Positions 13,152 to 61,509 of a stretch of 61,531 nt of DNA are shown one piece after another. Location of the stretch: NCBI GenBank assembly GCA_002371155.1, contig DFGC01000012.1, positions 1 through 61,531 of the forward strand, read 5' to 3'. How positions within the stretch are numbered: the stretch's first letter is position 1; each line of letters begins with the position of its first letter. This DNA is from Alphaproteobacteria bacterium UBA3760. GTDB lineage: Bacteria > Pseudomonadota > Alphaproteobacteria > Rs-D84. The translations under genes were made by a program, and so were the position numbers. The notes beneath the pieces were generated by a model that did no database searches, was not told where the DNA came from, and saw only the letters and a list, made by a program, of their open reading frames with translations.

Positions 13152-13167
13152 ACAAAAATATCGAACA

Positions 13168-13197
13168 AAAAAATCCGTCAATCGACGGATTTTTTTA
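13168..13197. terminator. Bidirectional terminator between convergent genes
   Basis: A-run atccgtc-aatc-gacggat T-run. Confidence 0.8.
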
Positions 13198-13204
13198 TTA
13201 TAAA

Positions 13205-15505
13205 TTATTCTGATTCCGATTTATTAAAATCCACATAGTTGCCTAAAATATTTCCCATTGTGCCACCCGCCGCACCAATACCAACCGCACCCAATCCGGT
13301 ATCTATACGATTTTGTGTATTGGTTGCATCATCGGCAATACGCGATATATCGTTTGGATTTCCAACCGACGCACGATAAAGCGATGCATATGTTCCATTT
13401 TGCACACCCGACCCAACATCATCATATAAACCGGTATATTCGCGTTTGAATACAACCGCCGATTCAATTCCCGGCGCATATCCCAATGCATCTTTGCGTT
13501 CATGCAAATCATCCGCCAACGCAACATATTCGCTGTATAAACCCGTCAAAGCATTTTCGCCACCAACATTTACCGATTTTTCATTAAAACGATACCGCCG
13601 CCCACCAACACGACATTGCATTTTTTGTGTATATGCCGCCATATCCGCCGCCGCCGCGGCGTCCGCCGATTGTGCCGCCAAACCAGACGCCAATTGCATC
13701 CCACCAATTCCCGTCGCCCCAATCGTCGCACCCGACATCAGACGGTTTTTCAACGACATTTCGTTTTCCCGCGCAGACGCATATTCTTCTTCGGCGGCAC
13801 GAATACCATCATCAACACACGCGCCGTTTTCCAAACGATACCCGCGCGCACAGTGCACCGGACGACACACACCATTTACAAATTCGAACCTGTCCGCATT
13901 TGGAAATTGTGCTTTTTCTGATTCATTACATTCGGTCCTGGGTTTTTCCGCGCTTTTCCATTTTGCAACCAAAGTTTTTTTACCACCATTGTTTTCATCA
14001 AACATAAAAGTCCTTTGCGGATTAACACACGCCGCGTCAACACACCAACCATCAAAAACATAACCCGATCGCTGGGGTTCGCAATCAACCGTAAATTGTT
14101 GCCCCACGATATAATTTTTGGGTGCATTATCACAACCGGTTCCACCGCCCAAGTTATAATTTATTGCATAGACCTCTTCTTCGGGTGCCTCTTGCTCTGA
14201 ACTCGCCTGATTTGTTATTACACTGGTATCACCCGCCTTGCACGTTGGATTAAACGAATTTTCATTTGCATCGGGAACAAAGCCTGGCTCACACCATGTC
14301 CTGTAATTACACTGGGATTGGCCATCACTGCCGACCAATTCGCATTTTGCTTTTGCCCCAGGCGCACATTCCGCACATGCAACACACTCACCATTTTGCA
14401 ATATATAACCATTCTGACAAGATTTCGGACGACACACACCACCTACAAATTCGAATTCTTTTACATTTGAAAATTTTGCTTTTTCTTCATCGCTACACTC
14501 TCTTCTCTCTTTTGCTACCGCCGTCCATTTTGCATAAAATGTTTTATCACCCATATCCGTGTCGCCAATCACACGATTCTTTTGTGGGTCATTCAAATCA
14601 TTTGTCGTACACCATCCATCAAAAACAAATTCTGATTTGGTTGGTTGACATTCAATCTTTGTCTGTGCCCCATATGTATGGGTCAAACTGTCGCACCCAT
14701 TCCCACCATTTAAATTTAATGTTATTTGATACATATTTGGTGAACACGACGGATTGTATTTACCGGCATTCTGTTCGTTTCCATATCCGGTCTCGCACGA
14801 TGTTTTATATCGACAATTTTTCAACCCATCACTGCCGGTCATTTCACAATTTGCATGCGTCGGCGAACATGATTGACATGGAACACATACCGCATCATCC
14901 GTATTATCATGTTCCAACACATACCCAGAAACACACTTTGTCGGCATACAAATCACATCTGTATTCTTATCTAAATCTTGGGTATGCGCTCTATTCAATT
15001 CGTGATTTATGCCTGATTGCGCATTTAACCGACCCAATTCTGACTCTGTACATTTATTGTCAGATTTCACACAATCATCTGTTGTAATCGTAATCCCATT
15101 CAAAGTATGCTTTTTCAATTCATATCCAGATTTACAAAAACTTTCATGCCGACAAATTCCTTTGGAACGCGTTGGTCTGCCCATTGAATCCTTGTAATAA
15201 GACAAATAATATCCGTTTTCGTTTCTGCACGATTTTCTGACACAGGTTAAAACATTCTTGCCATTATTTTTTTGTATCTGACATGTTCCTGTTTTTGTGT
15301 TATCACTGCATGAATCGCCATTTTTTTTACCAACACACAATTTATCATTCATACCACCACCAGATTGCGCCCCCGAATACCCGGTTTCTATTCCGCTGGC
15401 ATTCACTGTTCTGGTTGGCCCGCTGTTTGTATTTGCGGCATACACGCCACCAACGCAAAATGCGCAAAACACAAACGCGACAAAAACGCGACAAATGCGA
15501 AACAT
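13205..15505 (-). CDS. Secreted Cys-rich surface protein with two InlB B-repeat-like (Listeria-Bacteroides) domains and conserved Gly-rich C-terminal module
   Basis: Signal MFRICRVF..VYA; ITLNLNGG..GYVFDGW..FYAKW motifs; CxPxxCxxGYxL repeats; C terminus shared with next gene. Confidence 0.8.
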   Translation of the reverse strand: MFRICRVFVAFVFCAFCVGGVYAANTNSGPTRTVNASGIETGYSGAQSGGGMNDKLCVGKKNGDSCSDNTKTGTCQIQKNNGKNVLTCVRKSCRNENGYYLSYYKDSMGRPTRSKGICRHESFCKSGYELKKHTLNGITITTDDCVKSDNKCTESELGRLNAQSGINHELNRAHTQDLDKNTDVICMPTKCVSGYVLEHDNTDDAVCVPCQSCSPTHANCEMTGSDGLKNCRYKTSCETGYGNEQNAGKYNPSCSPNMYQITLNLNGGNGCDSLTHTYGAQTKIECQPTKSEFVFDGWCTTNDLNDPQKNRVIGDTDMGDKTFYAKWTAVAKERRECSDEEKAKFSNVKEFEFVGGVCRPKSCQNGYILQNGECVACAECAPGAKAKCELVGSDGQSQCNYRTWCEPGFVPDANENSFNPTCKAGDTSVITNQASSEQEAPEEEVYAINYNLGGGTGCDNAPKNYIVGQQFTVDCEPQRSGYVFDGWCVDAACVNPQRTFMFDENNGGKKTLVAKWKSAEKPRTECNESEKAQFPNADRFEFVNGVCRPVHCARGYRLENGACVDDGIRAAEEEYASARENEMSLKNRLMSGATIGATGIGGMQLASGLAAQSADAAAAADMAAYTQKMQCRVGGRRYRFNEKSVNVGGENALTGLYSEYVALADDLHERKDALGYAPGIESAVVFKREYTGLYDDVGSGVQNGTYASLYRASVGNPNDISRIADDATNTQNRIDTGLGAVGIGAAGGTMGNILGNYVDFNKSESE
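13326..13795. repeat. 470-bp direct repeat copy 1 (partner 15674..16143)
   Basis: Ungapped, visually >90% identical, encodes EEEYASARENEMSLKN...ISRIADDA. Confidence 0.9.
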
Positions 15506-15567
15506 TTCCCCCTGCAATTCTATCAGAATTATTATATCACAAAACACACAATTTCCAAACGACGAAT

Positions 15568-18210
15568 TTATTGTTTATTTGGCCTATTTATTATCAAATT
15601 TCCACCAACACCGCTCGCCGCGCCGACGCCAGCCACCACCGCACCGGTCTTGATACGCGTTTCTGATTTTGCCGCATCATCGGCAATACGCGATATATCG
15701 TTTTCATTTCCAATCGACGCGCGATAAAGTGATGCATATGTTCCATTTTGCACACCCGACCCAACATCATCATATAAACCGGTATATTCGCGTTTGAATA
15801 CAACCGCCGATTCAATACCGGGCGCATATCCCAACGCGTCTTTGCGTTCATGCAAATCATCCGCCAACGCAACATATTCGCTGTATAAACCCGTCAAAGC
15901 ATTTTCACCACCAACATTTACCGATTTTTCATTAAAACGATACCGCCGCCCACCAACCCTGCATTGCATTTTTTGCGTGTACGCCGCCATATCCGCCGCC
16001 GCATCCACGTCCGCCGATTGTTCGGCAATCCCAGACGCCAATTGCATTCCACCAATTCCCGTCGCCCCAATCGCCGCACCCGACATCAGACGGTTTTTCA
16101 ACGACATTTCGTTTTCCCGCGCAGACGCATATTCTTCTTCGGCCCCCTTTACTTGTTCTTGTAATTTTTTATCGACGCAAACACCGCGACGCAGTATAAA
16201 TTCATCACTTTCACATTCCGATGGCACACATTTTCCATCACGCACAACTAATGTTTTTGCGTGTAATGCAGATTTATTGACATCATCACACATCCAAACG
16301 CACTTGGTCGGATTTTTCGCATTATCAAATTTATATTCATCAATGCACTTTGTCGGAACACAGATTTCACCCCGCACCGCAACCGTTTCCGCATTCAACA
16401 AACCCGGTGCATTCGCATCACAAATTTCAACACACACGCCACTATCCAAATTATACCCATTGACACAATCCGTCGGAACACATTGATTTTCAATCCAATT
16501 TCCACTCGTCGCGTGTAAATTATTTAATTCCGTTGCGGAACATTCACGCGCAAATTTTGCGTGATATGTTTTTGCACCACTTGTCCCCGCCGCAATTTCA
16601 ATTTTAGATTGTGGCGAATCACAATTCGCATCATTTTCACACCAACCCAAAAAACGGAATCCATCGGCAACATCCGTTGGAACATGCTCTATCGTTATGC
16701 CCCTATCATACGCATATTCATAAGTTTTTGATTGTGTTCCACCCGCACCATTATTCCATGACAAAGTAATTTGATATGTTTTGGCATTTGTGCAATATGC
16801 ATTATACGCCCCACTATTCACAATTGTTTCATATCCGGTTTTGCATGCCGTTTCATAATGACATTGCTCATTCACCATACTTAAAACACATGTTGCATTT
16901 GTATTATCTTTGCACGGCAAACAACACAATTTGCCTCCCGTCAGTTCATATTCACCAACACACCCCGTCGGGACACATTGATTATTTTCTGGGCGACCAT
17001 TTAACGCATGCAATCCCGCCAAAACATCCGCGCTGCAAATTTCAACACACACCGCATCATCCGTTCCACCCTTTTCCAAACGATATCCGTCTTTGCACTC
17101 CGTCGGGACACATGGCAACCCTGGTTTTTGCGCTGTTTTCTTTCTTCCTTTCTTTGCATGCAACCGTTTCAAAAAATCATCATTACAAGCATTCTCAACA
17201 ACCAGCGCTTCAACCACATTCTTTTTGATAACCGGTTCTGGTTCCAAATTTATTGTTAAATTTTCACCACAATTTACAATCTGACTTTTATACGTTGAAA
17301 ACCCTACTTGTAATTTGCAATTACTTGGGACATTACTATCCTTAAAATCAAATTTTCCGTCAATATCCGTAGGATGCACCCTGCCAGACGTTCCGGATAA
17401 CTTATCACCGTTTTCATCAACAAAAAATACCGTTGCCCCAGGCAACCCTACCCCATCTTCATCCAACACAACACCACTGACCCGTATTGTTCCGGTCCCC
17501 GTCCGCGCACTGGACGCACCACGCGCCACAACATTTCTGGTATTCTCAACACTTTCTGATTTTTTTGTTTCAACCTTCTTATCGTCCGATTTTAATTGTT
17601 CGGTTGAATTTGACTTTTGTTCCGTATTCGTATTTTCCGATTCCGTGGGCGCAACCGTCGCCACACTTGCGGATTTCTGTGCTGTGGGCGCACTTTCTGT
17701 CTTTGCCGGTTTTTTCGCCGATTCAGGATGCAATTCCGCATATGTTTTTACGCCTTTTTCAATCAACAATTTTTCTATATTTTTACACGGTTTATCATAT
17801 CCATCGCTTTGTCCTTGTTCATTCTTACTTGTACACACCGAATCATTATTTATATGCTCGCGAACAAAGTCCAACAATGTGCCTTTTTTTGTTCCAAACC
17901 CCTGCACAACGGGATAATTTATCTCCGCATTTATATTCGCACCACGATTTACAAACTCTTCAACAATTTTATCACGTCTATTATTACCACAACATTCCGC
18001 AACAGCCAATTCTATTCCAGACATATTTTTATATGTCGGATTTGATATTTTTGCATTGAGCATCTCTGGGTTCTTGTTTAATAAATCCCGAACCCCAGAC
18101 ACATCATCACGCATAATCGCTTTTTCCAAACTAACCGATGCGCCCAACACCGGCGCATGAAACGCGCACACGGCAATCATTATAAAAAAAGCACGATAAA
18201 AACGACCCAT
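15568..18210 (-). CDS. Secreted protein: ankyrin-like N domain, carboxypeptidase-regulatory-like domain, Cys-rich repeats, InlB B-repeat-like domain, conserved C-terminal module
   Basis: Signal peptide; NRGANINA; VSGVVLDEDGVGLPGATV..TDIDGKF; repeated CVPTxCxxxY; paralogue of 13205..15505. Confidence 0.8.
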   Translation of the reverse strand: MGRFYRAFFIMIAVCAFHAPVLGASVSLEKAIMRDDVSGVRDLLNKNPEMLNAKISNPTYKNMSGIELAVAECCGNNRRDKIVEEFVNRGANINAEINYPVVQGFGTKKGTLLDFVREHINNDSVCTSKNEQGQSDGYDKPCKNIEKLLIEKGVKTYAELHPESAKKPAKTESAPTAQKSASVATVAPTESENTNTEQKSNSTEQLKSDDKKVETKKSESVENTRNVVARGASSARTGTGTIRVSGVVLDEDGVGLPGATVFFVDENGDKLSGTSGRVHPTDIDGKFDFKDSNVPSNCKLQVGFSTYKSQIVNCGENLTINLEPEPVIKKNVVEALVVENACNDDFLKRLHAKKGRKKTAQKPGLPCVPTECKDGYRLEKGGTDDAVCVEICSADVLAGLHALNGRPENNQCVPTGCVGEYELTGGKLCCLPCKDNTNATCVLSMVNEQCHYETACKTGYETIVNSGAYNAYCTNAKTYQITLSWNNGAGGTQSKTYEYAYDRGITIEHVPTDVADGFRFLGWCENDANCDSPQSKIEIAAGTSGAKTYHAKFARECSATELNNLHATSGNWIENQCVPTDCVNGYNLDSGVCVEICDANAPGLLNAETVAVRGEICVPTKCIDEYKFDNAKNPTKCVWMCDDVNKSALHAKTLVVRDGKCVPSECESDEFILRRGVCVDKKLQEQVKGAEEEYASARENEMSLKNRLMSGAAIGATGIGGMQLASGIAEQSADVDAAADMAAYTQKMQCRVGGRRYRFNEKSVNVGGENALTGLYSEYVALADDLHERKDALGYAPGIESAVVFKREYTGLYDDVGSGVQNGTYASLYRASIGNENDISRIADDAAKSETRIKTGAVVAGVGAASGVGGNLIINRPNKQ
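15674..16143. repeat. 470-bp direct repeat copy 2
   Basis: See copy 1. Confidence 0.9.
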
Positions 18211-18266: not shown

Positions 18267-18659
18267 CTATTTTACATTTTCGTGCAAATCTGCAATAACA
18301 CGATTTTTCAATCCGCGCGGCAACAATGGAAACACACACGGCACTTTTTTACCAACGGCTTTTTTGTCCGCACTGCGTTTCGATTTTACATTTTTCAACA
18401 AATCATTTTCACTATTCCACAACGATGCACGCACAATCAGTGTTTTAAAACCAAAATCCGTTTTATAATAACGCGTAAAATGCAGATTCGATTTCACACC
18501 GTTCGATTTCAGGATATATTTCACAACCGGTAATTCAGACAATTTTCTTAGACGAAAATAAACATATTTTTTTCCATCTGACGCCCTTAATGTTTCAACA
18601 TCACGACACAATGCCCACAATAATTCAGAACTCTGATTTGTATCCAAACTGTAATTCAT
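18267..18659 (-). CDS. Hypothetical protein
   Basis: Basic 130 aa ORF, RBS-like GAAAGGGG upstream, between rpsU and the surface gene. Confidence 0.6.
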   Translation of the reverse strand: MNYSLDTNQSSELLWALCRDVETLRASDGKKYVYFRLRKLSELPVVKYILKSNGVKSNLHFTRYYKTDFGFKTLIVRASLWNSENDLLKNVKSKRSADKKAVGKKVPCVFPLLPRGLKNRVIADLHENVK

Positions 18660-18739
18660 ACCAATACCCCTTTCCTCAGAAAAAATCGCCAGGATTTTTT
18701 TCCTGGCGATAAAAATTGAAAAACCAAACACAACCGATA

Positions 18740-19098: not shown

Positions 19099-19174
19099 TG
19101 GTGGAGCTGATCAGACTCGAACTGACGACCCTCTGCTTGCAAAGCAGATGCTCTACCAACTGAGCTACAACCCC
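19099..19174 (-). tRNA. tRNA-Ala(TGC)
   Basis: GGGGTTGTAGCTCAGTTGGTAGAGC..TTGCAA..GTTCGAGTC..CTCCACCA; G3.U70 Ala determinant. Confidence 0.96.
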
Positions 19175-19180
19175 AAAACT

Positions 19181-19332
19181 TTTACGGAATCGCGCCATTT
19201 TGACAGACCCGTCACTCTCACAAAGCAACTTACCTCTACCAACCCGGCTACAACCCCAAAACTTTCCATGGGCTCTACCAACTTTATCGCGGCGGTGCCA
19301 TGCACCGACGGATGAGATACAACCCCAAAACT
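19181..19332 (-). pseudogene. Two degenerate tandem copies of tRNA-Ala upstream of the intact gene
   Basis: caaccccaaaact at 19168, 19251, 19320; ctctaccaac (D loop) in all three; middle copy keeps TGCTTTG and GGGTC.GTCA. Confidence 0.55.
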
Positions 19333-19466
19333 CTATCTTCCTATTCCAGAAAGCTCACATATTTTATACATTTATTTCAAATAAGTCAAATAAAAAATCA
19401 TTTTACATATTGACAAAAAAAATTTCTAATATAAACTAAAACCGATAATAATGGAGTGTGATTAGC

Positions 19467-25913: not shown

Positions 25914-28900
25914 TTATATTCCCAACCGATGTGATAATTTCATCATAAATATCGATTCGTTTCCAAACGCATCTGTATTGTTTGGGTTTACGCGATATAT
26001 GAACCCCAACGCACCGTCGGTCCAATCACCAAATTTATGACGATACGACGCATTAAAACGATATTCTCTTTTTTCTGGTGTTAAATCAATATCGCGTTCA
26101 CCTAAATAATTTACAATCAATGCGCCATTTTCATCTACATCAAAATCTGCAAACGAATAACGCATAACACCACCCGTCAATGCCAATGGGACAGACACCC
26201 CAAAATCAAAATTGCCAAACCGCGCACCCGCCGCAAAGGCATTTGATTTCAATTCATCCAATCCCAACACAATCCCATTTGCAATATCCCCAACATGTGT
26301 CCATGCAAATGTTGCGCGCAAAGATAAATCAATATTTTCATCAAACGCATATCGTGCAACCGAATCGATATAATTTGTATCGGCGCCATTCAAATCAAAA
26401 AATCCATAGCCCGCCGCACCCAAAACAGTATTCGATTCGTGCATTGTTCCAACATTCGATACAATCGACAATTTTTCATCACTAAATTTTATTCCTGATT
26501 CTGCGCCCGACGCATCGCCCAATTTTGCTGCCGCGAAATTATTCGACACCACGGGGTCATTTTCCAGCAATCCATCCGTTGTAATATTTCCAACAAACCC
26601 GCGCATGGCAATCGCAAATTTCCCAGACTTTAATTCCGCGCCCGTTGACACTGCATTTGACACCAAACCCAACACCGGATTCGCATGTCCCCAGAAACGC
26701 GATTCGCCATCGGTCAAATAATGCTGATATTCTGATTTTAATCCATACCGGTCATTTGCCCATGCAATCGACAAATTATCCACACCCGACATATTATCAT
26801 CATATAATTTTTCATGACGCGCAAAACCAAATTGCAAATTGCCGAATGATACAGTATTCGCAACATCATGCGTTTTCAATTCACCCAATGTATCACCCAA
26901 ATATAATCCATGCGCCACGCCATCACTCAACATAAATTCATTGTTCCACACGCGCGCCACAGATAATTCTGAATCTTGCGATGATAACACATCATACGCC
27001 GCGACCGGCACAACGACACCACGCGCACCAAATACATTTGTCATACGAACCCCAGATGCCCGGAAACTGTCCCAGAACAAACTATTCCCCGACACGATGT
27101 CACCATTTGCATAATAATAAATTTTTTCATTTGGCGTGACCGCACGTTCCAAATTTATTAAACCATAACCAAACACCTGTTTGAACGCATCCAAATAAGC
27201 CGTCCCCGTCAATGCATCTTTCTGCACAGACATCGTATATTTTGATTTCAGAAACGCAACCAAATCATCGACACTATACCAATCACCCGACGGATTTTTT
27301 GCCAGATATGGCCCATCCGCCGTCAAAGCCAACAAATTGAAAATCGTTTGATTCGACATATATCCAAAAGCTTTTTTCAACGATGCCACCGCCCCAGACA
27401 TCGCCGCAACCGCATATTCTGAATTATCGCCCGGCGCCGCAAAGCACCATGGGTCAACGCCACCAACCCCACTGCCCGCGACACCACACATACGCGAACG
27501 ATATACATTTGTGCCACCATCGTTCCATGTTGACAACTGAACTTTTCCAAACAATGAACCAACGCCATTACCATATTGCGCAACCGTCGTCGCAGCAGCA
27601 GTCCCCAGCACATGTTGAACCGCGACCACAGAAATAAAATTCTTGTCAATTTTATCCGAATACACAACCGGGGCATAATTTTCAAATGTCGCATCCACAC
27701 CCGACGGATAATTTGCAACATTATATCCACCAACCGAATTTACAACAATCGGTGAACCGACATTATAACGACTGAACAAATCGTCTGCATATGCGCCCTG
27801 GCCTGTGCCATACCAATATGCAATCCGTGTTTGAAAATTCGACGATGTTGCACCACCCGCCGAATTAGAAAAACCATCAATCGTGTCATATCCCGACGAT
27901 GTCAACGAATTTGTATTCTGAACAACATTTGCGATAACATCAGGCGTTGGACTTAAACGCAACGCATCATACATTGCGCGATAATTATATATACCACTCG
28001 CACCATCGCCAATTCGATATACCGCCAAAGAACCATACGGCACAAATCCATATAAATCACCCGAACGACCACCCGCCGCCCAACCGGCAACAATTTTCGC
28101 GATATTATTATCCTTCGCCGTTGCCGCCGAATTTTCAACCGCCGTCCCATTTCCAGACAAATCAAAATCTGTATTTTCCGTCCCAACGCAATTCGTGCCA
28201 TTACATCCCGAATTATTATAGTTTTTATATTTATCGACATAACTGACGCCGCCCATAACACTGTCGGCGACCGGTATTCCACCCGCACGCACCAAAGATC
28301 CACTTGAATTGTCTATGCCATTGGCGGTAATCAACGCAACCAGCGCAGGTGTTCCGCCATGAACCTCGGCTGCGACACCAGACATTAACAGAGGAACCTT
28401 GGTCGTTTCATTTCTGAAAATATATTGTCCATAATAACTGTTGGCAAACAAATCATATCCATGCGACATCAGTAAATAATTTTGCATATAATTCGAATCT
28501 GTGGCGGGCAATCCACGCAACCAATCAAAATCAGTTTTTCCAATGGTATTTGCCCAATTATCACCACTGACATTTGCATTTGGATTTATCGTTCCATCAG
28601 TTGCCAAATATGCCGGACTATACGGCACAACCAACGACGGATTGACCGCGTCGTCATCGCCCGTTCCCCCACCCGGGGTATTTCCAGAATGACTGCCTGA
28701 ACCCGTCCCAGAATCATTGTCATTGCCACCGTCGAACGCATCCGTCAACCACAACAAACCGCCAATCACCGCGCCCGCACCGACAACACCCAACAACAAT
28801 TTATGACTGGACGACAGACCGGAAAACATACCTGTATCATCGGCATTTTGATTTCGCGCGCGATAGTTTTTAATCTGTCGATCACATTGCGACGCATCTG

Positions 28901-29153
28901 CGCCATACATTTGTAATATTTGCACCGCACGCATATCGTTATTCATAACCGCAGTGCACACAACCGACACGCCTGTTGAATCGACATAATTTACATCGGC
29001 ACCACTGTTAATTAAATTTTGCACCAAACGCGTATTTCCATTGCGCGCTGCCGACAGCAACTGGGCCGCCATATTAAAATCAGCCCCCGCCGCCATCGCG
29101 CCAACGGGACAAAACACCACACCACCCAAGATAAATTTATTGAATTTCAACAA
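25914..29153 (-). CDS. Ankyrin repeats plus degenerate subtilase-like domain plus putative C-terminal beta-barrel (autotransporter-like)
   Basis: LLSAARNGN..LINSGADVN; WCFAAPG..SGAVA.L..AF..LL..TA..FGYGLINL; alternating beta-strand C terminus; TTG start. Confidence 0.7.
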   Translation of the reverse strand: MLKFNKFILGGVVFCPVGAMAAGADFNMAAQLLSAARNGNTRLVQNLINSGADVNYVDSTGVSVVCTAVMNNDMRAVQILQMYGADASQCDRQIKNYRARNQNADDTGMFSGLSSSHKLLLGVVGAGAVIGGLLWLTDAFDGGNDNDSGTGSGSHSGNTPGGGTGDDDAVNPSLVVPYSPAYLATDGTINPNANVSGDNWANTIGKTDFDWLRGLPATDSNYMQNYLLMSHGYDLFANSYYGQYIFRNETTKVPLLMSGVAAEVHGGTPALVALITANGIDNSSGSLVRAGGIPVADSVMGGVSYVDKYKNYNNSGCNGTNCVGTENTDFDLSGNGTAVENSAATAKDNNIAKIVAGWAAGGRSGDLYGFVPYGSLAVYRIGDGASGIYNYRAMYDALRLSPTPDVIANVVQNTNSLTSSGYDTIDGFSNSAGGATSSNFQTRIAYWYGTGQGAYADDLFSRYNVGSPIVVNSVGGYNVANYPSGVDATFENYAPVVYSDKIDKNFISVVAVQHVLGTAAATTVAQYGNGVGSLFGKVQLSTWNDGGTNVYRSRMCGVAGSGVGGVDPWCFAAPGDNSEYAVAAMSGAVASLKKAFGYMSNQTIFNLLALTADGPYLAKNPSGDWYSVDDLVAFLKSKYTMSVQKDALTGTAYLDAFKQVFGYGLINLERAVTPNEKIYYYANGDIVSGNSLFWDSFRASGVRMTNVFGARGVVVPVAAYDVLSSQDSELSVARVWNNEFMLSDGVAHGLYLGDTLGELKTHDVANTVSFGNLQFGFARHEKLYDDNMSGVDNLSIAWANDRYGLKSEYQHYLTDGESRFWGHANPVLGLVSNAVSTGAELKSGKFAIAMRGFVGNITTDGLLENDPVVSNNFAAAKLGDASGAESGIKFSDEKLSIVSNVGTMHESNTVLGAAGYGFFDLNGADTNYIDSVARYAFDENIDLSLRATFAWTHVGDIANGIVLGLDELKSNAFAAGARFGNFDFGVSVPLALTGGVMRYSFADFDVDENGALIVNYLGERDIDLTPEKREYRFNASYRHKFGDWTDGALGFIYRVNPNNTDAFGNESIFMMKLSHRLGI

Positions 29154-33046: not shown

Positions 33047-35320
33047 TTAGTGTTGCATCACTTCAACATCTGTCGTTGACGCCCACGGCACATCTGGACC
33101 ATACGGCGTAATCGGTGTTGGATCACGTCCATCACGCGTACATGCACCATACGACACCGCAACCGAACGATTTTCTATACATACACTGCCCGACATTTTG
33201 CATGCGCCCCGCACTAATGTTGTCGTGTTGCGACCGGGCTTTTGATAATTAATCTGCACGGCTTTGCAATCTTCGGCTGTGGTATACATGCCACAAGTTG
33301 CAATCCAATCCGCACATGATGTCACCCGGGCGGTTGGCGATATCGAATCTGCCACACGCAAATTCCATTTCACATAGAAATCTTTCAAAGAATCTATAGT
33401 GAACGCCTTGCCGAAACCAACCGTATTCAAACCGTCCCCAACATGGCACGAAATATTATTGCGTTCCACGAATGCGGTAATTGCGGTTGCAACACCACCG
33501 GCACCCAAACCAACCCCGGCACCGACCAACGCCGATTTACCACGATTGGATTTTTGCCCCATCAGTATATCGCCAATGTTGTTATATACCTTGTCTAATT
33601 GCGCAACCTGGGTTTCTGCAGTTGCCTTATCAACGCAATTGGCCGTAACCTCACCATTACACAATACACTATCTACGCGTTCCACATTTTGCAAAGTCGA
33701 AAAACGACAATTTCCTCGAACTGGCACTTCTGTAACTCCGCATTTGGCTTTACACTCATCTATCAGATCTCTAACTGTTGTGTTAGAGATAGATCCGCCA
33801 TCTTTATCAACCAATCCTCGTGTCTCGTTCAACGCAACTTTCTTAGTACCATCACCATTTTCTTGCATCAAAGTTATTTCACCATCAGTTGCATTAAACT
33901 CACCACAGTCTGCACTTGCACTATAGAAAACACCATTATCTTTTAAACGAATCTTACACTCATAAACAGAGCTTGCGGTCCGGGTTCCAGTCGCCGAACA
34001 ATTTGGCAAAGCACTCTTAACATTACGATACTTATCATACAGTTTTAGCAAATCCTCGCACCAGTCTGTATCCACATCAGCCGGATTCAATGGCACAGAT
34101 TTCTTCAAATACGTCGATAAAGTATTATCCAATTTTTTATCTTTGATTCTTTGCCACAATTCTTTGCGCATATCGTCATTATTGCAATCAAATGCACGCG
34201 CATCATGCCCCGCCAACGCACCGATACCGGCGCCAACCAACGCACCACCCGGCAACGCAGTCGCCGCAACGGTGCTGGTATCATTTAACAATGAAAAATC
34301 AAACAAATCTTTGTTGCATGTAAATGTCGAACCGGCATCTTGCCAAACCTCGGCGGCACGGTCATCACCCAATGCACCAAACAACCAATTATTTGTAATC
34401 AGTTTATCTTTGTTATATGCCGCAACACGAACCTTGCACACTGCGTTCGTTGCATCCCAACGCGCATAGTGTCCGCGTTCACCATCAACACCCGACACAT
34501 TTCCATTGGCAGTATTATTCACCATTGGACCTTGGGGTTGATTTTTCGACAACGAACCATTCATTTGTTCATTGTATGCGCCAACCTTGTCATTATATTC
34601 ACTTGTCACGCCACCATTTGTCGCAACCGCCGCAAACGAACGACCATATGTGTTTTTATCTAACAATTCACATACATTTTCCGCCTGGTTCGGGGTCAGA
34701 CCCGTTCTGCGCAAAACAAAGTTATAATATTCCGGTTGAACAATTCTGGAATTGAAATCCAACCAAACATCCACAGACGAATCGTAAATACTGCGACAAT
34801 CGACACGAACCTCACGAATACATTTGTCAACCTCGGACGCACAAATGCCCATGCCGTTTATTATCGAATTACGCAAATCTTCATTAAACAAATCATTTAA
34901 TCCATGCGGCAAAACACCACTTTGTACACAATTCAATACCGATTGCATACAATCATCAACGGTAAAGGATGAATTACGCACACCGCCATCCGGGCAATCG
35001 CCATTACCCGGATTATCTGGATTATCCGGGTTGTTCGGATTGTTCGGATTATTCGGGTTGTTCGGATTATTCGGATTGTTCGGATTATTTGGCGTTGGAA
35101 CATCCGGTATTGCCGAACCATTACCACCCGTTGTCGTAACACCTGACACCGCATGTGTCCCAATTGTATTGATTGACATCGTTGGCATTGTCGGCATACG
35201 CGTCCGCCCAGAATTAGAAGTTGCCACAACCGAACGCGACGCGGCATACGCGCCACTGACACAGACAATCGCCGTCATCCCAGCGATACAAGACCATAAC
35301 AATTTAGACGTTTTTTGCAT
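33047..35320 (-). CDS. Secreted Cys-rich protein with NNP low-complexity linker and two glycine-zipper segments
   Basis: Signal peptide; (NNP)n; GGALVGAGIGALAG and ALVGAGVGLGAGG. Confidence 0.78.
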   Translation of the reverse strand: MQKTSKLLWSCIAGMTAIVCVSGAYAASRSVVATSNSGRTRMPTMPTMSINTIGTHAVSGVTTTGGNGSAIPDVPTPNNPNNPNNPNNPNNPNNPNNPDNPDNPGNGDCPDGGVRNSSFTVDDCMQSVLNCVQSGVLPHGLNDLFNEDLRNSIINGMGICASEVDKCIREVRVDCRSIYDSSVDVWLDFNSRIVQPEYYNFVLRRTGLTPNQAENVCELLDKNTYGRSFAAVATNGGVTSEYNDKVGAYNEQMNGSLSKNQPQGPMVNNTANGNVSGVDGERGHYARWDATNAVCKVRVAAYNKDKLITNNWLFGALGDDRAAEVWQDAGSTFTCNKDLFDFSLLNDTSTVAATALPGGALVGAGIGALAGHDARAFDCNNDDMRKELWQRIKDKKLDNTLSTYLKKSVPLNPADVDTDWCEDLLKLYDKYRNVKSALPNCSATGTRTASSVYECKIRLKDNGVFYSASADCGEFNATDGEITLMQENGDGTKKVALNETRGLVDKDGGSISNTTVRDLIDECKAKCGVTEVPVRGNCRFSTLQNVERVDSVLCNGEVTANCVDKATAETQVAQLDKVYNNIGDILMGQKSNRGKSALVGAGVGLGAGGVATAITAFVERNNISCHVGDGLNTVGFGKAFTIDSLKDFYVKWNLRVADSISPTARVTSCADWIATCGMYTTAEDCKAVQINYQKPGRNTTTLVRGACKMSGSVCIENRSVAVSYGACTRDGRDPTPITPYGPDVPWASTTDVEVMQH
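35010..35093 (-). repeat. 9-bp-period tandem repeat encoding (N/D)NP
   Basis: ggattatct/ggattatcc/gggttgttc/ggattgttc/ggattattc units with synonymous variation. Confidence 0.9.
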
Positions 35321-36542: not shown

Positions 36543-39329
36543 TTACATTGGTATATCTTGACTGGTAATCACCGGTTGCGCCATACGCGTGCATACATTT
36601 CCAGTATAATTTTTCACGACACCACCGCCACTGTGTCCACCAATACCAATAAACCAATTAGACCCGCCAAATCCGATACCACCACTGCTGCCATTTTCAT
36701 CGACCGTGTTATAAACATCTTTCATATTTTCACACATAGTTGTATAACTGGTCAATTTACAGGTATCCGTATCCGATGAATAGACCGCATTCATAACAAT
36801 TTTACCAATCATATTGCCAAATGTATCCACCTGAACAAATTCACCGCGTCCAGATTTTTGTTGATTTAACAATTCGTTCATCGTCATTCCGTCAATAACC
36901 AACCGTACATCATATACACCGGGGCGCGCCTTGGATTCACGCAAACCCGCAAAATTATTGCTAACAATTTCTTTGGGCGTCACAGTCAGCCCAGACATTT
37001 TTTTCAGGTTTTGCAACACTGACCCAATTGTCGGTGCCTCGACGAACACATCTGATTTTCCATTATCTACATCGGGCACATCGGTTGCCATCGCCGCACA
37101 CAATGCCGCCTTGATTTCATCGCTTTGTTGTTCCAACGCCCCAGCAACCAATTCATTGTATTTTTTAGAATAATTTTCTGTTGCCTTGTCTAAACCGGCA
37201 TTTACAATTGACATTATCGCAGAATCCAACAAATGCGGATATCGCGCTGTGTCGCGGGTTTCGGAACGTTTGCTGTTTGAACCACGAATTTGCGTCATAT
37301 CGCGCCCGTTCACGCACATACTGATTTTCGGGTCAGATGTCAACAACGCAATCTTTTGATTTATTTTATTTTGTGTCGATTGCAATGTCGATAACACGCG
37401 TCCCTTTATTACAGAAGTCCCATCAACATTTTGTATGTTGTCCGAATAATTTTCGATATCCAATTCATATTTACCAAATTTAACATCATCAGATGTACTG
37501 GTCGTTTCTTTGATTTTAACATTCCCAAAGGTCACCAAACCTTCGATAACAAAACTGCCATCACGCGCCTTGTAACTGGTTAAACTGTCCGCACCCATGG
37601 TTGTGTCATTATCAAATGCCGCACATGCAATATCATCACCACATATTTCGATATACTTTGCATTTACCGCATTTTGACAATTCGTCAGCAAAGAATTATC
37701 TATATCCAAATAAACACCTTGGACAATATTATCGATAACATCCCATGTGGCATCTTGTCCATTTTCTTGGCACGCAATCAGTTTTGCCAACGGACACATA
37801 TCACGAATTGATTGCAAATCCAACCCGACACATTTCGAATAATCAGACCCGCATCGGTCTTCATCGGTCAAACAATTTTTAACCTCGGTCGTGCACGCGT
37901 CAACCCGCATAGATGCCAATCGCGCATAAACATAATCCAAAATTTTTGGTTCGGCGGCAATACACGGTTCAATTTGCACACTGCATAACGCCCGCATAGT
38001 TTCCGGACGCGACAAACACATATCATACGAACCGTCCGGATTACTCGGGTCAATATTATCTTTACACGCGGTCTGGAAACACGATGAAATATCACTGATA
38101 CAATTCATACGCAAATTCGATTCTGCAATCAGTTCCGCAGATTTAATTTCCGGCGCGGCTTCAACCAAGAATGTATCCCACACTTTATCTTTGACGGCAA
38201 CACATTGCTTGGTCACACTTTCGCACATTGTTTTCTTGGCCATCAACACATCGTATGTCCCCGCCGCAATAGAAATATTTGTCGCACCGGTTTTAACTGT
38301 TTTATTTTTCTTGTTTGATTGTAAATTTTGCATTGCAACCGATGACGCACATTTGGAAAAATCATCACCACACCCCGCGGTTGTCTGCATACATTGCTTG
38401 AACCGAATCGTGCATTGCCCCAAATCGTATTTATTAGCATTTTGATATTGCTCCAACGCAGCATCACGCATGGCGGTCTGCGCCGTTTGCAATTTTTTCA
38501 TCGAAGAATTTCTTTGTTGTTTCAAACTGTTTTCATATGCCGTGCAATCAGATTTTATTTGTTGCGCATACATCAATTTCAACATAGACATACTGGCACG
38601 ACATCCCGGAATTTGCGCCGCACACATTGATGACGCCGATGAATACAACGCATCACCCGTTTTGTTTGATATACTATCTTCGGCCGCAAAATCATCTATA
38701 TCTTCATAAACATCATTCCACGCATCCAAATCCAGATTCAGGCTGCGCGTGCGTTTGGCATTACTGGTTGCCGATTGCGCCGCCGCATTTGCCGCACTGT
38801 CCACCATTTTTTGCACTGCATCCGCGTCCGCACCCATATTTATGCGGTCAACCCCCATCGTCGCCATAGCATAACTTTGTTCGTCCAATTTTTGGATTTC
38901 TTCCAACACAGTATCCAATTCCATATGCCGATTACTGCATAAACAACGCCCACCATTGACATTATCCAACATACAAAAAGAATCCATACATCCAAAATAT
39001 TTTGTTCTGCACTCTTCACTGACGATTGTGTTTGTTGTGGCACCGGCAATTTGTGTTCCACTTGATATAACTTTCTTGGTCGTTGCCGCACGCGCCGAAA
39101 CCGCCCCAGATTTTTGTGAACCCAACCCCGTGTTTGTTGCCACCGTCCCAGACCGCCGAACCGCCAAACGCGCAGGCATCGCCAACCCGCCCGACGAAGT
39201 GTTCGCCACATCTGTTGAATTCGTTGTGGCCGGCACACGACGCAATGTCGTCGAACTGCGAACCGCCGCATCCGCCCCAAAACCCACAAAACAACAAAAT
39301 AAAAGATTCAGCGCAATCAGTTTTTTCAT
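36543..39329 (-). CDS. Large secreted Cys-rich protein
   Basis: 928 aa; signal peptide, Arg/Ala/Thr-rich linker, repeated Cx6C..CxxD[YF]SKC modules. Confidence 0.8.
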   Translation of the reverse strand: MKKLIALNLLFCCFVGFGADAAVRSSTTLRRVPATTNSTDVANTSSGGLAMPARLAVRRSGTVATNTGLGSQKSGAVSARAATTKKVISSGTQIAGATTNTIVSEECRTKYFGCMDSFCMLDNVNGGRCLCSNRHMELDTVLEEIQKLDEQSYAMATMGVDRINMGADADAVQKMVDSAANAAAQSATSNAKRTRSLNLDLDAWNDVYEDIDDFAAEDSISNKTGDALYSSASSMCAAQIPGCRASMSMLKLMYAQQIKSDCTAYENSLKQQRNSSMKKLQTAQTAMRDAALEQYQNANKYDLGQCTIRFKQCMQTTAGCGDDFSKCASSVAMQNLQSNKKNKTVKTGATNISIAAGTYDVLMAKKTMCESVTKQCVAVKDKVWDTFLVEAAPEIKSAELIAESNLRMNCISDISSCFQTACKDNIDPSNPDGSYDMCLSRPETMRALCSVQIEPCIAAEPKILDYVYARLASMRVDACTTEVKNCLTDEDRCGSDYSKCVGLDLQSIRDMCPLAKLIACQENGQDATWDVIDNIVQGVYLDIDNSLLTNCQNAVNAKYIEICGDDIACAAFDNDTTMGADSLTSYKARDGSFVIEGLVTFGNVKIKETTSTSDDVKFGKYELDIENYSDNIQNVDGTSVIKGRVLSTLQSTQNKINQKIALLTSDPKISMCVNGRDMTQIRGSNSKRSETRDTARYPHLLDSAIMSIVNAGLDKATENYSKKYNELVAGALEQQSDEIKAALCAAMATDVPDVDNGKSDVFVEAPTIGSVLQNLKKMSGLTVTPKEIVSNNFAGLRESKARPGVYDVRLVIDGMTMNELLNQQKSGRGEFVQVDTFGNMIGKIVMNAVYSSDTDTCKLTSYTTMCENMKDVYNTVDENGSSGGIGFGGSNWFIGIGGHSGGGVVKNYTGNVCTRMAQPVITSQDIPM

Positions 39330-60036: not shown

Positions 60037-61509
60037 TTACATATCCGGGCCGGCGGTAAAAGTTCCCGTTCCCGCATTGGTAAAGAATTGCCCCGACACC
60101 ATATCATACATACCAACGACACCCGATGAATTTTTTGCCGGGATACCATTAAATACTAATTTATTATTATCGTTATATATTTTTACATATCTCCAAGAAG
60201 AACTACTTTTATTATAACTTGATGTTGTTTTGTCGTTATTTGTTTTACCTATCCACAAAGATAAATCTGAATTTGAAAAAGATTCTCCTGCCAAATTATT
60301 AGATTTTAATACATCATTTATATACAGCCCATCTTTTGTTATTTTATAATTATAAAACGTATTTGTTGTAACATCCAAATTTGATATAACTGCATTCATT
60401 CCGGTTCCACCTTTACCCCAAAACGAATGCCCAGAACTGTTTGCTAATCCAAATTGAGCTCCCCAAACAGTAGAACTCCAAATACCAGACCCCGCGCCAA
60501 AAAAATAATCCCCAGCCTTTGGAACAGACATTTCAAATTGAGCAGACCAATTCCAATTCGTGGCTACGATTCCGGTATCAATCCATGAATTTCCATCCGT
60601 TTGTAAATACTGCAATTCCGTGTATCCGGCGGGGAGTGCATGCGCGACACCATTTGCACCCGCAATCGGATACCAATGCGGGGTGCCGTCTTCATCCTCG
60701 ACCAATAAACAGTATTTCGCCGTGCATCCCTCGTCCGGGCGGGTTTGCTTTTCATTCGCAATTTGGTCTATTTGCTGCGCCTGACTCATCGTCTGGGTCA
60801 CGACAGTATCCACCGCCGCAACCGCCGCGTCTAAACGCGTTTCCACCGGCGCAAATTGTCGTTCGTTATACCGCGTCGTTGCAATTTTGATTGATACCGG
60901 CAGCCCCGCGATGAATTCACCCGTGCCCGCATTGGTATGAAACGCAGTTTCTGGATTTGCATCCGCCAAATCATACATACCCAACACACCATCGCTATCA
61001 CGCCGTGCCGGTATACCGTCAAATACTAAACTATCATTTTTTGAAGCCTTGTAATAGTAAATTTTAACATTTTTATTTTTATAATTAGTACCACTACTGT
61101 TGTTAAGATTAAATAAATACAACATAGAGGACCCCACCCTACCGTTTGTATATGTTGTGCCATTGGTTTCGTTCGTAAAATACCATCTGGTGTCCAAAAC
61201 ATTTTGCTTTATAATGTAAACCCCAGGTTCACTTGTACCATAACGCCTATCTTTTACACCTACCTGAGATGCACCGTTCACAAACATAAAACCTGATGAA
61301 TCATTCACAGTTTCAAATTTTAATTCCATATAATCAATCGTTGCTTCGTTCACATTAGTATTAATCCATTGTGTTCCGGTGGATTCGATGTATTCCAATT
61401 CGGTATATCCGGCGGGGAGTGTTGCCGCATGGGCGACATTTAATATAAACATGCATGTGACGGCCGCCAACACTAATTTTAACGAATCGAATATACGCAA
61501 AAATTCCAT
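60037..61509 (-). CDS. Secreted modular protein: signal peptide, two phage-tail/ConA-like 'LPAGYTELEY' domains flanking the KIATT core
   Basis: 490 aa; LPAGYTEL.Y...G..WI.T..., GIPA...G..GMYD...F.TNAGTG.F.AG twice; core shared with 15..1760. Confidence 0.82.
   Translation of the reverse strand: MEFLRIFDSLKLVLAAVTCMFILNVAHAATLPAGYTELEYIESTGTQWINTNVNEATIDYMELKFETVNDSSGFMFVNGASQVGVKDRRYGTSEPGVYIIKQNVLDTRWYFTNETNGTTYTNGRVGSSMLYLFNLNNSSGTNYKNKNVKIYYYKASKNDSLVFDGIPARRDSDGVLGMYDLADANPETAFHTNAGTGEFIAGLPVSIKIATTRYNERQFAPVETRLDAAVAAVDTVVTQTMSQAQQIDQIANEKQTRPDEGCTAKYCLLVEDEDGTPHWYPIAGANGVAHALPAGYTELQYLQTDGNSWIDTGIVATNWNWSAQFEMSVPKAGDYFFGAGSGIWSSTVWGAQFGLANSSGHSFWGKGGTGMNAVISNLDVTTNTFYNYKITKDGLYINDVLKSNNLAGESFSNSDLSLWIGKTNNDKTTSSYNKSSSSWRYVKIYNDNNKLVFNGIPAKNSSGVVGMYDMVSGQFFTNAGTGTFTAGPDM

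Follow-up and report, generated by a model that had tools for sequence, protein, structure and literature searches.

Two adjacent paralogous genes, A and B, of an uncultured, Ca. Enterousia-like gut alphaproteobacterium (order Rs-D84) encode a shared module, and it is well supported that the 471-nt core of this module undergoes repeated short-tract gene conversion. The passengers of the two proteins and their 3' tails, including the second Gly-rich helix, are evolving independently. The module itself is previously undescribed and is without a known sequence relative or solved fold in the databases searched. Among the loci inspected so far, it is restricted to the Rs-D84 / Ca. Enterousia gut Alphaproteobacteria. 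These bacteria are widespread and uncultured, and the module family takes up a sizeable share of their small genomes.

The A and B genes and their shared module

Both genes lie on the minus strand of the window, which is the whole stretch of 61,531 nucleotides analyzed, and both open reading frames were confirmed. Each begins with a cleavable-type signal peptide followed by a long Cys-rich, repeat-rich passenger. The features of the locus are as follows.

13205 to 15505, minus strand: gene A, 766 amino acids, with signal peptide, Cys-rich passenger, two Flg_new repeats, module and short tail
15531 to 15558, minus strand: promoter-like site of gene A, TTGGAA, 16 nt and a TG-extended TATAAT, with 10 of 12 matches (consensus match only)
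15437 to 15505, minus strand: signal peptide of A, MFRICRVFVAFVFCAFCVGGVYA, without a lipobox
14528 to 14731, minus strand: Flg_new (Listeria-Bacteroides repeat) copy 1 in passenger A, PF09479 (protein E 1e-19) and TIGR02543
13955 to 14149, minus strand: Flg_new-type repeat copy 2 in passenger A, a profile match
13164 to 13199, minus strand: intrinsic-terminator-like hairpin downstream of A, a 16-bp stem followed by a T run
15568 to 18210, minus strand: gene B, 880 amino acids
17269 to 17481, minus strand: CarboxypepD_reg-like (SusC N-terminal-extension-like) domain in passenger B, Pfam E 1.1e-5, below the cut-off
13223 to 13795, minus strand: family-level module in A, ORF codons 585 to 775
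15586 to 16143, minus strand: family-level module in B, codons 690 to 875
13325 to 13795, minus strand: gene-conversion core tract, A copy, 471 nt, 94% identical to the B copy
15673 to 16143, minus strand: gene-conversion core tract, B copy, 471 nt, aligned to the A copy
13673 to 13741, minus strand: Gly/Ala-rich helix 1 of A, LMSGATIGATGIGGMQLASGLAA, within the core tract
16021 to 16089, minus strand: Gly/Ala-rich helix 1 of B
13613 to 13615, minus strand: invariant Cys codon of the A module, in KMQC
13208 to 13324, minus strand: paralog-specific tail of A, including Gly-rich helix 2 (13235 to 13300, TGLGAVGIGAAGGTMGNILGNY), not homogenized
15583 to 15648, minus strand: Gly-rich helix 2 of B, TGAVVAGVGAASGVGGNLIINR, in the paralog-specific tail

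The mechanical reading frame of gene A reaches a GTG at 15547, which falls within the -10 box, and the ribosome-binding site AGGGGGA lies between the promoter-like site and the ATG at 15505. This RBS and promoter-like site indicate that the start of gene A is most likely the ATG at 15505 and not the GTG at 15547. In gene B the signal peptide is followed by an N-terminal region that resembles the passengers of the orthologous locus, a low-complexity linker, the CarboxypepD_reg-like domain, Cys-rich repeats, the module and a short tail.

The earlier note on this DNA described the passengers as divergent, and their domain content does differ: two clear Flg_new repeats are seen in A, while B has the CarboxypepD_reg-like domain, which also matches the N-terminus of TIGR04056 (E 4.6e-7), and the low-complexity linker. 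They are not unrelated, however, since both contain Cys-rich and Flg_new-type repeats, which are 28-33% identical. The Cys content of passenger A is 7.4%. A and B may be surface-exposed and anchored, for which the hydrophobicity evidence is no more than suggestive. In SusC-type transporters the CarboxypepD_reg domain resides in the periplasm, and the passengers may therefore not be exposed on the surface at all.

The module is about 190 residues long. It begins with a helix containing E-x-S-x-x-N, followed by Gly-zipper helix 1, an acidic helix and one invariant Cys, and continues with a beta-hairpin, helices with PGIE and GLYDD motifs and Gly-zipper helix 2. Small-xxx-small motifs occur in both Gly-rich helices, which are separated by about 125 amino acids. 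The segment after helix 1 is strongly acidic, and helix 2 is followed by the basic cluster RDKK. A search of the window for further module copies returned only those of A and B, and no link was found between A or B and the KIATT proteins. Small exported proteins adjoin some module-only genes elsewhere, but no such conserved partner gene lies within the window. Metatranscriptomes from samples holding the strain were too shallow to show expression, and the S21 gene was the only gene detected in them.

Gene conversion between the module copies

Positions 13326-13795 and 15674-16143, which are offset by 2348 nt, form a gapless alignment with 94.3% identity over 470 nt; an independent repeat search of the window recovered the same pair. 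At the 5' edge in the sense of the genes (13795/16143), identity falls abruptly to the random level, and on the 3' side of the core it decays to 60-73%. The core (A codons 585-741, B codons 690-846) has a dS of 0.18 and a dN of 0.03, with 17.5 differences at 111 synonymous sites, so that it is fair to describe the near-identity of the two tracts as extending to synonymous positions. In contrast, dS is about 1.0 and dN 0.53 in the 29-codon tail, and the 317 alignable passenger codons have a saturated dS of 1.64 and 36% amino acid identity. The passengers are therefore not as similar as the modules. Two Gly/Ala-rich helices were said to bracket the module, and both are indeed present, but helix 2 is outside the near-identical tract and within the divergent tail. 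Because this tail is homologous yet divergent, the tract has a limit at either end. In a public run that contains this strain at about 112x, the contigs end precisely at the borders of the repeat.

Comparisons with related strains provide further evidence. These tests used longer JGI contigs, which were preferred over k=31 Logan contigs. Across a small sample of two A and three B orthologs, one of them partial, 13 polymorphisms in the core are common to both paralogs and only one difference is fixed, so shared polymorphisms far outnumber fixed differences. The tail, in contrast, is strictly paralog-specific; the A tail of L087, for instance, is 99.1% identical to the A tail of the window and 53% identical to the B tail. 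The cores of the orthologs L087, L088 and L089 are mosaics of A-type and B-type alleles, and some of the switches between alleles are 6-14 nt apart, which is below any assembler k-mer. In strain X2, the B copy has variants at the sites that distinguish the paralogs, at which it carries the A allele (P about 1e-11). The mosaics in the X2 Logan contigs are suggestive, although a k=31 assembly could produce mosaics artificially. An explanation of the mosaics by retention of ancestral alleles was considered and rejected, given the 13 sites with both alleles in both paralogs. One hybrid contig, L086, joins a B passenger to an A module and tail exactly at the repeat edge. It may represent a real unequal crossover or deletion or an assembly chimera, the switch being inside a 69-nt identical stretch.

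Overall, the paralogs are more similar to each other than to orthologs within a bounded tract that includes synonymous sites (core dS of 0.18 versus 1.0-1.6 in the flanks), and the 13 shared versus one fixed polymorphisms, together with the reciprocal allele swaps among strains, indicate repeated exchange. The homogenization by gene conversion that the earlier note proposed is thus substantiated by the dS contrast, the tract boundaries, the polymorphism counts and the mosaic alleles. An origin without ongoing conversion, whether through a single recent event of duplication or domain transfer or through purifying selection on the protein alone, merits almost no credence: a single transfer would also yield a low dS and a sharp 5' boundary, but purifying selection cannot preserve synonymous sites, the orthologous modules of other species are only 49-55% identical, the shared polymorphisms and reciprocal swaps call for more than one exchange, and the divergent homologous tail marks the limits of the tract on both sides. 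The pair provides a clean natural case of tract-limited gene conversion with a paralog-specific tail adjoining the tract.

Distribution and architecture of the module family

The module family comprises at least 885 clusters at 50% identity and 196 loci in GTDB species representatives. All of the 80 loci inspected belong to Ca. Enterousia or uncultured Alphaproteobacteria, with the exception of one contig binned as Muribaculaceae. Among these loci the module is confined to Rs-D84 / Ca. Enterousia-type MAGs, in agreement with the suggestion that it is lineage-specific. The genomes of this lineage are under 1 Mb, and its members are predicted to depend on other cells as obligate symbionts or parasites (PMC12306168).

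The usual layout is a signal peptide, a Cys-rich variable passenger and the module, often followed by a linker, which contains Cys, and an OmpA-like peptidoglycan-binding domain. Passenger types include CarboxypepD_reg, CPL1/cEGF-like Cys repeats, Flg_new and trypsin. The combination of a constant with a variable part, first noted for A and B, is found throughout the family. An architecture is thereby defined in which a variable passenger is joined to a constant module, which evolves in concert within genomes, and to an optional peptidoglycan-binding domain. The sequences flanking the module are rich in Cys (4.2% and 4.5%), whereas the module has a single Cys, the invariant one, in 166 of 168 relatives. 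A signal peptide is still present on relatives of 226-280 amino acids that consist of the module only.

The module had been regarded as inherently C-terminal and as a possible export signal, and neither idea is upheld. In 77 of 168 full-module relatives, more than 150 amino acids extend beyond the module and its helix 2. The OmpA-like domain (PF00691) is found in 28 of the 54 long members and is C-terminal of the module in all ten proteins mapped; it is absent from A and B. The internal position of the module and the OmpA-like domain beyond it argue against a C-terminal sorting or export signal. Moreover, the LPXTG, PEP-CTERM, GlyGly-CTERM and T9SS CTD sorting signals gave no match in NCBIfam or Pfam, and unlike these signals the module is not always terminal.

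Homogenization limited to the module also occurs between dispersed paralogs of other genomes. In five of ten genomes, pairs of modules are 85-93% identical, compared with a median of 53% between genomes. Dispersed pairs have a dS of 0.22-0.44 and unrelated flanks, and the homogenized pairs combine OmpA-bearing with OmpA-less architectures. At the syntenic locus of other species, the flanking proteins are 90-100% identical and the module 49-55%. This orthologous locus holds either one gene of 295-764 amino acids or two genes, and B is the positional ortholog of the single gene.

Searches of A, B and relatives against Pfam, NCBIfam, PHROGs and PADLOC gave no match to the module, and in a sequence-profile search of the PDB the best hit (E = 0.055) was spurious. 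AF2 gave an unusable model with a 28-sequence alignment (mean pLDDT 43.9) and a moderate one with 90 sequences (mean pLDDT 64.6, pTM 0.30). The latter has long continuous helices across the helix 1 region and a core of helix, beta-hairpin and helix, with low confidence (below 56) in both Gly-rich helices. Foldseek found no match to this model in the PDB (best E 1.7). A known anchor family, which would have contradicted the earlier note, was accordingly not encountered in Pfam, NCBIfam or the PDB, nor as a fold by Foldseek.

Possible functions of the module

The interpretation that we prefer, with a confidence slightly better than even, is that the module is a Sec-exported glycine-zipper scaffold with a gene-converted core that associates with a membrane, probably the outer membrane, and serves in anchoring and oligomerization. 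The whole protein would be exported by Sec, and the signal peptides even on the module-only proteins of 226-280 amino acids point toward export. The Cys-rich flanks around a module with a single Cys, and the position of the OmpA-like domain C-terminal of the module, also speak for an exported envelope scaffold. The two GxxxG-type Gly/Ala-rich helices would attach to a membrane, most likely the outer one, or zip up with those of other modules to form oligomers, or do both. The module could then tie the variable passengers to the envelope and, in the OmpA-bearing paralogs, to peptidoglycan as well. Homogenization would probably be favored because paralogous modules must stay compatible for co-assembly or must fit one shared partner, and the homologous core may also give recombination a handle by which passengers and tails are reshuffled.

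In favor of the scaffold, the Gly-rich helices are less hydrophobic on the Kyte-Doolittle scale (1.04-1.58) than all ten SecY helices of the same organism (at least 1.56). Helix 1 has a family mean of 1.15 and a value of 1.04 in A and B, under every SecY helix, and helix 2 reaches 2.0 in some members. An argument from biological hydrophobicity, by which both helices scored above 0 as a crude sum, was dropped. Genuine SecY helices cover the same range, and because this sum does not discriminate, only the weaker Kyte-Doolittle comparison was kept.

Glycine-zipper helices are found in the Escherichia coli outer-membrane lipoproteins SlyB, YfgH, OsmB and YiaD, the last of which also has an OmpA C-terminal domain (doi 10.64898/2025.12.22.696046). 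SlyB/Pcp, YfgH, OsmB and YiaD, which are of the Pfam glycine zipper 2TM type, are exported by Sec into the envelope, as the members of the module family probably are; in both groups the GxxxG helices are rich in Gly/Ala and only slightly hydrophobic, and the pairing seen in YiaD recurs in about half of the long family members. These lipoproteins oligomerize, which is only proposed for the module. Several features, however, set the module apart. No lipobox (L-[AS]-[GA]-C) was seen by eye in A, B or the short relatives, whose signal peptides end in AxA-like sites. The glycine-zipper HMMs PF05433, PF13488, PF13436 and PF13441 gave no match at E<=1 in A, B and 28 relatives, nor at E<=0.001 in 54 relatives or E<=0.01 in 18 more. 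Additionally, the helices are about 125 amino acids apart, around a conserved helix, beta-hairpin and helix domain with an invariant Cys, and the family bears large N-terminal passengers and is, as far as inspected, found in Rs-D84 only. The missing HMM match and lipobox, and helices too far apart for a tight hairpin, count against the scaffold interpretation, as do the moderate AF2 model with its low confidence in the Gly-rich helices and the possibility that homogenization is a neutral by-product of recombination and was not selected. If the module is an alpha-helical outer-membrane anchor, it would join the very few devices for outer-membrane anchoring that are not beta-barrels. The module and its passengers are concrete targets for metaproteomics, structural work and localization studies.

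The OmpA/MotB/Pal-type proteins are comparable in that an element presumed to be membrane-associated is combined with PF00691 in 28 of 54 long members. They differ in that A and B lack PF00691 and the element is not a beta-barrel, lipid anchor or classical hydrophobic helix. The MotB arrangement figures in an alternative, which is unlikely though not negligible, in which the module is a two-helix anchor of the inner membrane. Helix 1 would act as stop-transfer for a periplasmic passenger, the middle of about 125 amino acids would be cytoplasmic, and helix 2 would return to the periplasm, where the tail or OmpA-like domain then binds peptidoglycan as in MotB. A cytoplasmic middle domain fits the single module Cys of nearly all relatives (166/168) between Cys-rich flanks (4.2% and 4.5%), an OmpA-like domain after a membrane helix is the MotB/ZorB arrangement, and helix 2 can be as hydrophobic as 2.0; the crude delta-G scale, moreover, cannot tell the Gly-rich helices from weak SecY helices. 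Nevertheless, helix 1, at 1.15 (1.04 in A and B), is less hydrophobic than every SecY helix and is followed by a strongly acidic flank, such Gly-zipper helices are typical of Sec-exported outer-membrane lipoproteins, and a signal peptide on module-only proteins would be pointless if these were mostly cytoplasmic.

A more elaborate form of the scaffold interpretation is tentative and rather improbable. It holds that the paralogs hetero-oligomerize into an alpha-helical glycine-zipper platform in the outer membrane, in which the OmpA-bearing subunits would bind peptidoglycan, the OmpA-less ones, A and B among them, would present their rapidly evolving, Cys-rich passengers at the cell surface, and selection for co-assembly would drive concerted evolution. 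Were it true, the family would be the main cell-contact apparatus of these reduced-genome, partner-dependent gut Alphaproteobacteria.

It is quite unlikely that the module is instead a soluble oligomerization or stalk domain, a periplasmic or extracellular helical bundle or coiled coil in which the Gly/Ala-rich helices are packed and never inserted into a membrane. The low hydrophobicity of these helices, the continuous helices that AF2 predicts through the helix 1 region with the helix, beta-hairpin and helix core, and the coiled-coil-like sequence directly upstream of the module in many relatives are all compatible with it. On the other hand, uncharged Gly/Ala/Ile/Val runs of more than 20 residues with GxxxG spacing, kept across the 885 clusters, would be unusual in soluble bundles, the RDKK cluster after helix 2 resembles that of a membrane anchor, and A, B and the other OmpA-less members would be left without an evident means of attachment to the cell.

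Lastly, the module might mainly provide homology for swapping, deleting and duplicating passengers and tails, with a secondary structural role, as likened to the antigenic-variation families of bacteria. The hybrid contig L086 with its B passenger and A module and tail, the orthologous locus with one gene (295-764 amino acids) or two between flanks 90-100% identical, a weak joint lacking gene B in run X3, and the predicted life of the lineage as an obligate symbiont or parasite (PMC12306168) are in keeping with this. We nonetheless consider it quite unlikely: L086 may be a chimera formed in the 69-nt identical stretch, and the surroundings of the locus showed no silent cassettes, invertible promoters or site-specific recombinase. 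Strong conservation of protein motifs throughout the family, with 21 invariant positions in A1, argues for a function of the module at the protein level. Programmed antigenic-variation systems, in which promoterless or truncated donor cassettes convert a single expression site in one direction, also differ in that A and B are both full-length with start codons, A having its own promoter-like site, and further module copies are missing from the window.

The order of signal peptide, long repeat-rich passenger and conserved C-terminal module in A and B is reminiscent of the Type V autotransporters. No autotransporter profile in Pfam or NCBIfam matched A or B, however, and no beta-barrel, such as their 12-stranded C-terminal translocator domain, was detected in A or B; for the module, a largely helical structure with a single short hairpin is predicted, and in many relatives it is internal, with a periplasmic OmpA-like domain beyond it. 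A further parallel may be seen in the Hop/Bab paralogs of Helicobacter pylori (babA/babB), in which gene conversion drives the concerted evolution of the 3' segments for the membrane anchor. Their anchor is a beta-barrel, whereas the module is predicted to be alpha-helical with a fold that has no match, can be internal, and is followed in A and B by an extreme 3' tail that is not homogenized. In both cases, a variable N-terminal part, exposed in the Hop/Bab proteins and possibly so here, is joined to a conserved 3' segment, presumed here to encode an anchor as well, that is homogenized within the genome; chimeric paralogs occur in the Hop/Bab proteins, and L086 may represent one here.

Genes A and B and their shared tract

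Genes A and B are neighbouring paralogues, each encoding a signal peptide, a variable passenger, a constant module of about 190 residues and a short tail.

13205..15547 (-): gene A, open reading frame (ORF) as called mechanically by ORF search
Upstream of gene A: promoter-like TTGGAA-16-TG-TATAAT site, AGGGGGA ribosome-binding site, then ATG 15505
15568..18210 (-): gene B, from ORF search, adjoining gene A
13325-13795 / 15673-16143 (-): core tract, A copy / B copy, by codon-register alignment

Judging from the sequence, the most likely start codon of gene A is the ATG at 15505, and a strong terminator-like hairpin lies downstream. The gapless, near-identical module described in the earlier note was confirmed: the two intervals align at an offset of 2348 nt with 94.3% identity over 470 nt. 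A repeat search of the window recovered the same pair independently, and tblastn found only these two module copies in the window. In a public gut-metagenome run with the same strain at about 112x, contigs end exactly at the repeat borders. The shared repeat is real and far beyond chance.

At 13795/16143, identity falls at once to the random level on the 5' side (gene sense), and on the 3' side it declines gradually to 60-73%. In a codon alignment of the core (A codons 585-741 vs. B codons 690-846), dS is 0.18 and dN 0.03; over the next 29 codons, dS is about 1.0 and dN 0.53. The passengers are 36% identical, with a saturated dS of 1.64 over 317 alignable codons, and the proposed check of module against passenger dS bears out the earlier note. 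The second Gly-rich helix, one of the two said there to bracket the module, sits outside the near-identical tract, in the divergent tail. The passengers, described as divergent, are otherwise different but have Cys-rich and Flg_new-type repeats in common (28-33% identity).

Synteny with the window is shared by seven retrieved loci (ClpB 90-95%, S21 97-100% and DUF1015 92-96% identity to its proteins). Each has one module gene, of widely different length (295-764 aa), including one with a trypsin passenger, one split gene and one truncated by the contig end. Their modules reach no more than 49-55% identity with A or B. Because the passenger of B is akin to those at three syntenic loci (25-34% identity) and that of A has only weak relatives, B is taken as the orthologue by position, with A as an additional copy. 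A relative, L088, keeps the two genes in tandem in the order B-A, at about 88% nucleotide identity.

Several smaller features accompany these genes. Antisense ORFs of 205 and 230 aa face the module copies (13446-14063 and 15794-16486, +); their N-termini are identical to each other, and they are probably by-products of repeat and strand composition, not genes. Passenger A varies by insertion/deletion between strains at 14407-14523, where about 115 nt are exchanged for other sequence in metagenome run X2 and contig L087. The split gene (L061 4408-6657, MAG RUG13375) is broken within the module into ORFs of 588 and 155 aa; a frameshift, a pseudogene or faulty assembly could explain this. A 154-aa ORF without Pfam match or signal peptide (18267-18731, -) separates S21 from gene B and recurs at the same position in syntenic L010, L011, L014 and L061 (31-43% identity) and as a close copy in L088. 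In run X3, a single contig links 15554 to 18740, which would delete gene B and this ORF; its shorter side is 24 nt and the observation is weak.

Gene conversion between the cores

The proposal that gene conversion homogenised the module stands as a solid reading of the sequences: core dS is low, both ends of the tract fall inside homologous sequence, and orthologues are mosaic and share polymorphisms. Selection on the protein alone is rejected as the cause of the low core dS, and orthologous modules diverge fast. Orthologues from related strains, assigned to A or B by unique passenger sequence, carry mosaic alleles at the 28 positions by which A and B can be told apart in the window; in L087 the A orthologue has the pattern BxBBBBBAAAABBBAAAAAABBBABBBA. 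Because some allele switches lie 6-14 nt apart, below the assembler k-mer, these mosaics are not graph chimeras. Nor are the B-type alleles merely ancestral, which is ruled out by a shared-polymorphism test: 13 core sites have both alleles in both paralogues and one is a fixed difference (19 vary among A orthologues only and 48 among B orthologues only). The adjoining tail is strictly paralogue-specific: in L087, that of A matches the A tail of the window at 99.1% identity and the B tail at 53%.

Two weaker observations agree with this. The B copy of another strain has variants at A/B-distinguishing sites and carries the A allele there, and in a contig of 1.1 kb the B passenger runs into a perfect A module, with the junction precisely at the edge of the repeat. 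Either unequal crossover or chimeric assembly could account for this contig.

Similar behaviour extends across the family. Module pairs within a genome are 85-93% identical in five of the ten genomes with at least two sampled copies, including copies on separate contigs; identity between genomes has a median of 53% and a 95th percentile of 67%. Three of the high-identity pairs have dS of 0.22-0.44, and flanks are unrelated or unalignable. Some pairs join an OmpA-bearing with an OmpA-less protein (L056/L047, L084/L080).

A new module family and its architecture

The module is a new protein family whose evolutionary behaviour is of a known kind. As the earlier note held, it is not a known anchor family: it has no match in Pfam, NCBIfam, PHROGs or PADLOC, and a profile search of the PDB returned nothing significant. 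An AF2 model of moderate confidence (mean pLDDT 64.6; residues about 60-130 at 75-90) has no Foldseek match (best E 1.7). Family alignments define seven elements, in order:

Helix with invariant E-x-S-x-x-N
Gly/Ala-rich helix 1 (TGIGGM)
Acidic helix (D-M-x-A-Y)
Single invariant Cys, then a beta-hairpin
Helix EYVxLAxDLKxRK
PGIE and GLYDD motifs
Gly-rich helix 2, in many cases with a basic cluster after it

Exactly one Cys is present in the module of 166/168 relatives.

When 1.84 billion representative proteins were searched with a profile, 885 module clusters emerged (744 at E<=1e-30). A scan of GTDB species representatives gave 196 loci, and genomes have several copies each. The lineage specificity claimed earlier holds: among the loci inspected, and apart from one short contig binned as Muribaculaceae, homologues belong to gut MAGs that bear the labels 'Candidatus Enterousia', uncultured Alphaproteobacteria or uncultured proteobacterium, from samples including rumen, horse, chicken and human. 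The lineage is the order Rs-D84, with genomes <1 Mb, without respiration and predicted to be an obligate symbiont or parasite (PMC12306168). The family is not described in that paper, nor was a description found by literature keyword searches on 'Enterousia' and 'Rs-D84'.

The module is not intrinsically C-terminal, as had been supposed. In the 168 proteins whose module is complete, the N-terminal extension has a median of 322 aa and the C-terminal one ranges from 0 to 1594 aa, exceeding 150 aa in 77; the module is thus a putative, often internal scaffold. A and B belong to the long-passenger class without C-terminal extension. The 54 long members include matches to the OmpA-family peptidoglycan-binding domain (28), CarbopepD_reg_2 (24), CarboxypepD_reg (20), trypsin (8) and CPL1-like Cys repeats (7). 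In ten mapped proteins, OmpA always follows the module, and CarboxypepD_reg, where present (5/10), precedes it, mostly directly behind the signal peptide. Both flanks are Cys-rich (4.2% and 4.5%). Module-only relatives of 226-280 aa retain typical cleavable signal peptides. Small exported proteins without Pfam matches, 22-31% identical among themselves, adjoin short module-only genes (L001 7094-7997, L005 8698-9528, also L012, L025, L036 and L047) and have no counterpart in the window.

Proposed role and other features of the window

Signal peptides in all member classes, Cys-rich flanks, the OmpA domain of periplasmic type after the module and helices of low hydrophobicity indicate that the proteins are exported. 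The same four features suggest that the module binds membrane or self-associates via glycine-zipper helices. The Gly/Ala-rich helices of A and B (KD values of 1.04-1.58) are less hydrophobic than 10/10 SecY helices of the same organism (1.56 or higher). The module is proposed as a scaffold, shared by the family, for anchoring and oligomerisation, with the outer membrane as its probable site. It would tie the variable passengers to the envelope and, for some paralogues, also to peptidoglycan. Concerted evolution would preserve mutual compatibility of paralogous modules, and the homologous core would also permit reshuffling of passengers and tails. Among known devices, the nearest are glycine-zipper lipoproteins of the outer membrane (SlyB, YfgH, OsmB and YiaD); YiaD combines its glycine zipper with an OmpA C-terminal domain (doi 10.64898/2025.12.22.696046).

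A serious rival is a topology in which the two helices sit in the inner membrane and the middle domain is cytoplasmic, which the single Cys would fit. A crude delta-G scale apparently spoke against inner-membrane insertion and was dropped when its SecY control failed, so this rival stands. Outer-membrane co-assembly, if true, would make the family considerably more interesting.

Elsewhere in the window, 'KIATT' proteins, unrelated to the A/B module, lie at both ends (15-1760, +; 60037-61509, -) and have the common motif IKIATT.YNE.QFAPVET.LDAAVAAVDTVV. Two further large proteins with signal peptides (33047-35320 and 36543-39329, -; 757 and 928 aa; 3.7-3.9% Cys) match nothing in Pfam and do not resemble A or B. 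A 1079-aa protein (25914-29153, -) has a signal peptide, weak ankyrin-repeat matches at its N-terminus and a C-terminal aromatic/hydrophobic alternation that by eye resembles an outer-membrane beta-barrel ending. The only true tRNA in the region 19151-19334 is tRNA-Ala (19102-19174, -); partial copies of its 5' part and upstream bases at 19234-19265 (91% identical) and 19303-19334 (72%) may have been left behind by tandem tRNA genes or by integration events.
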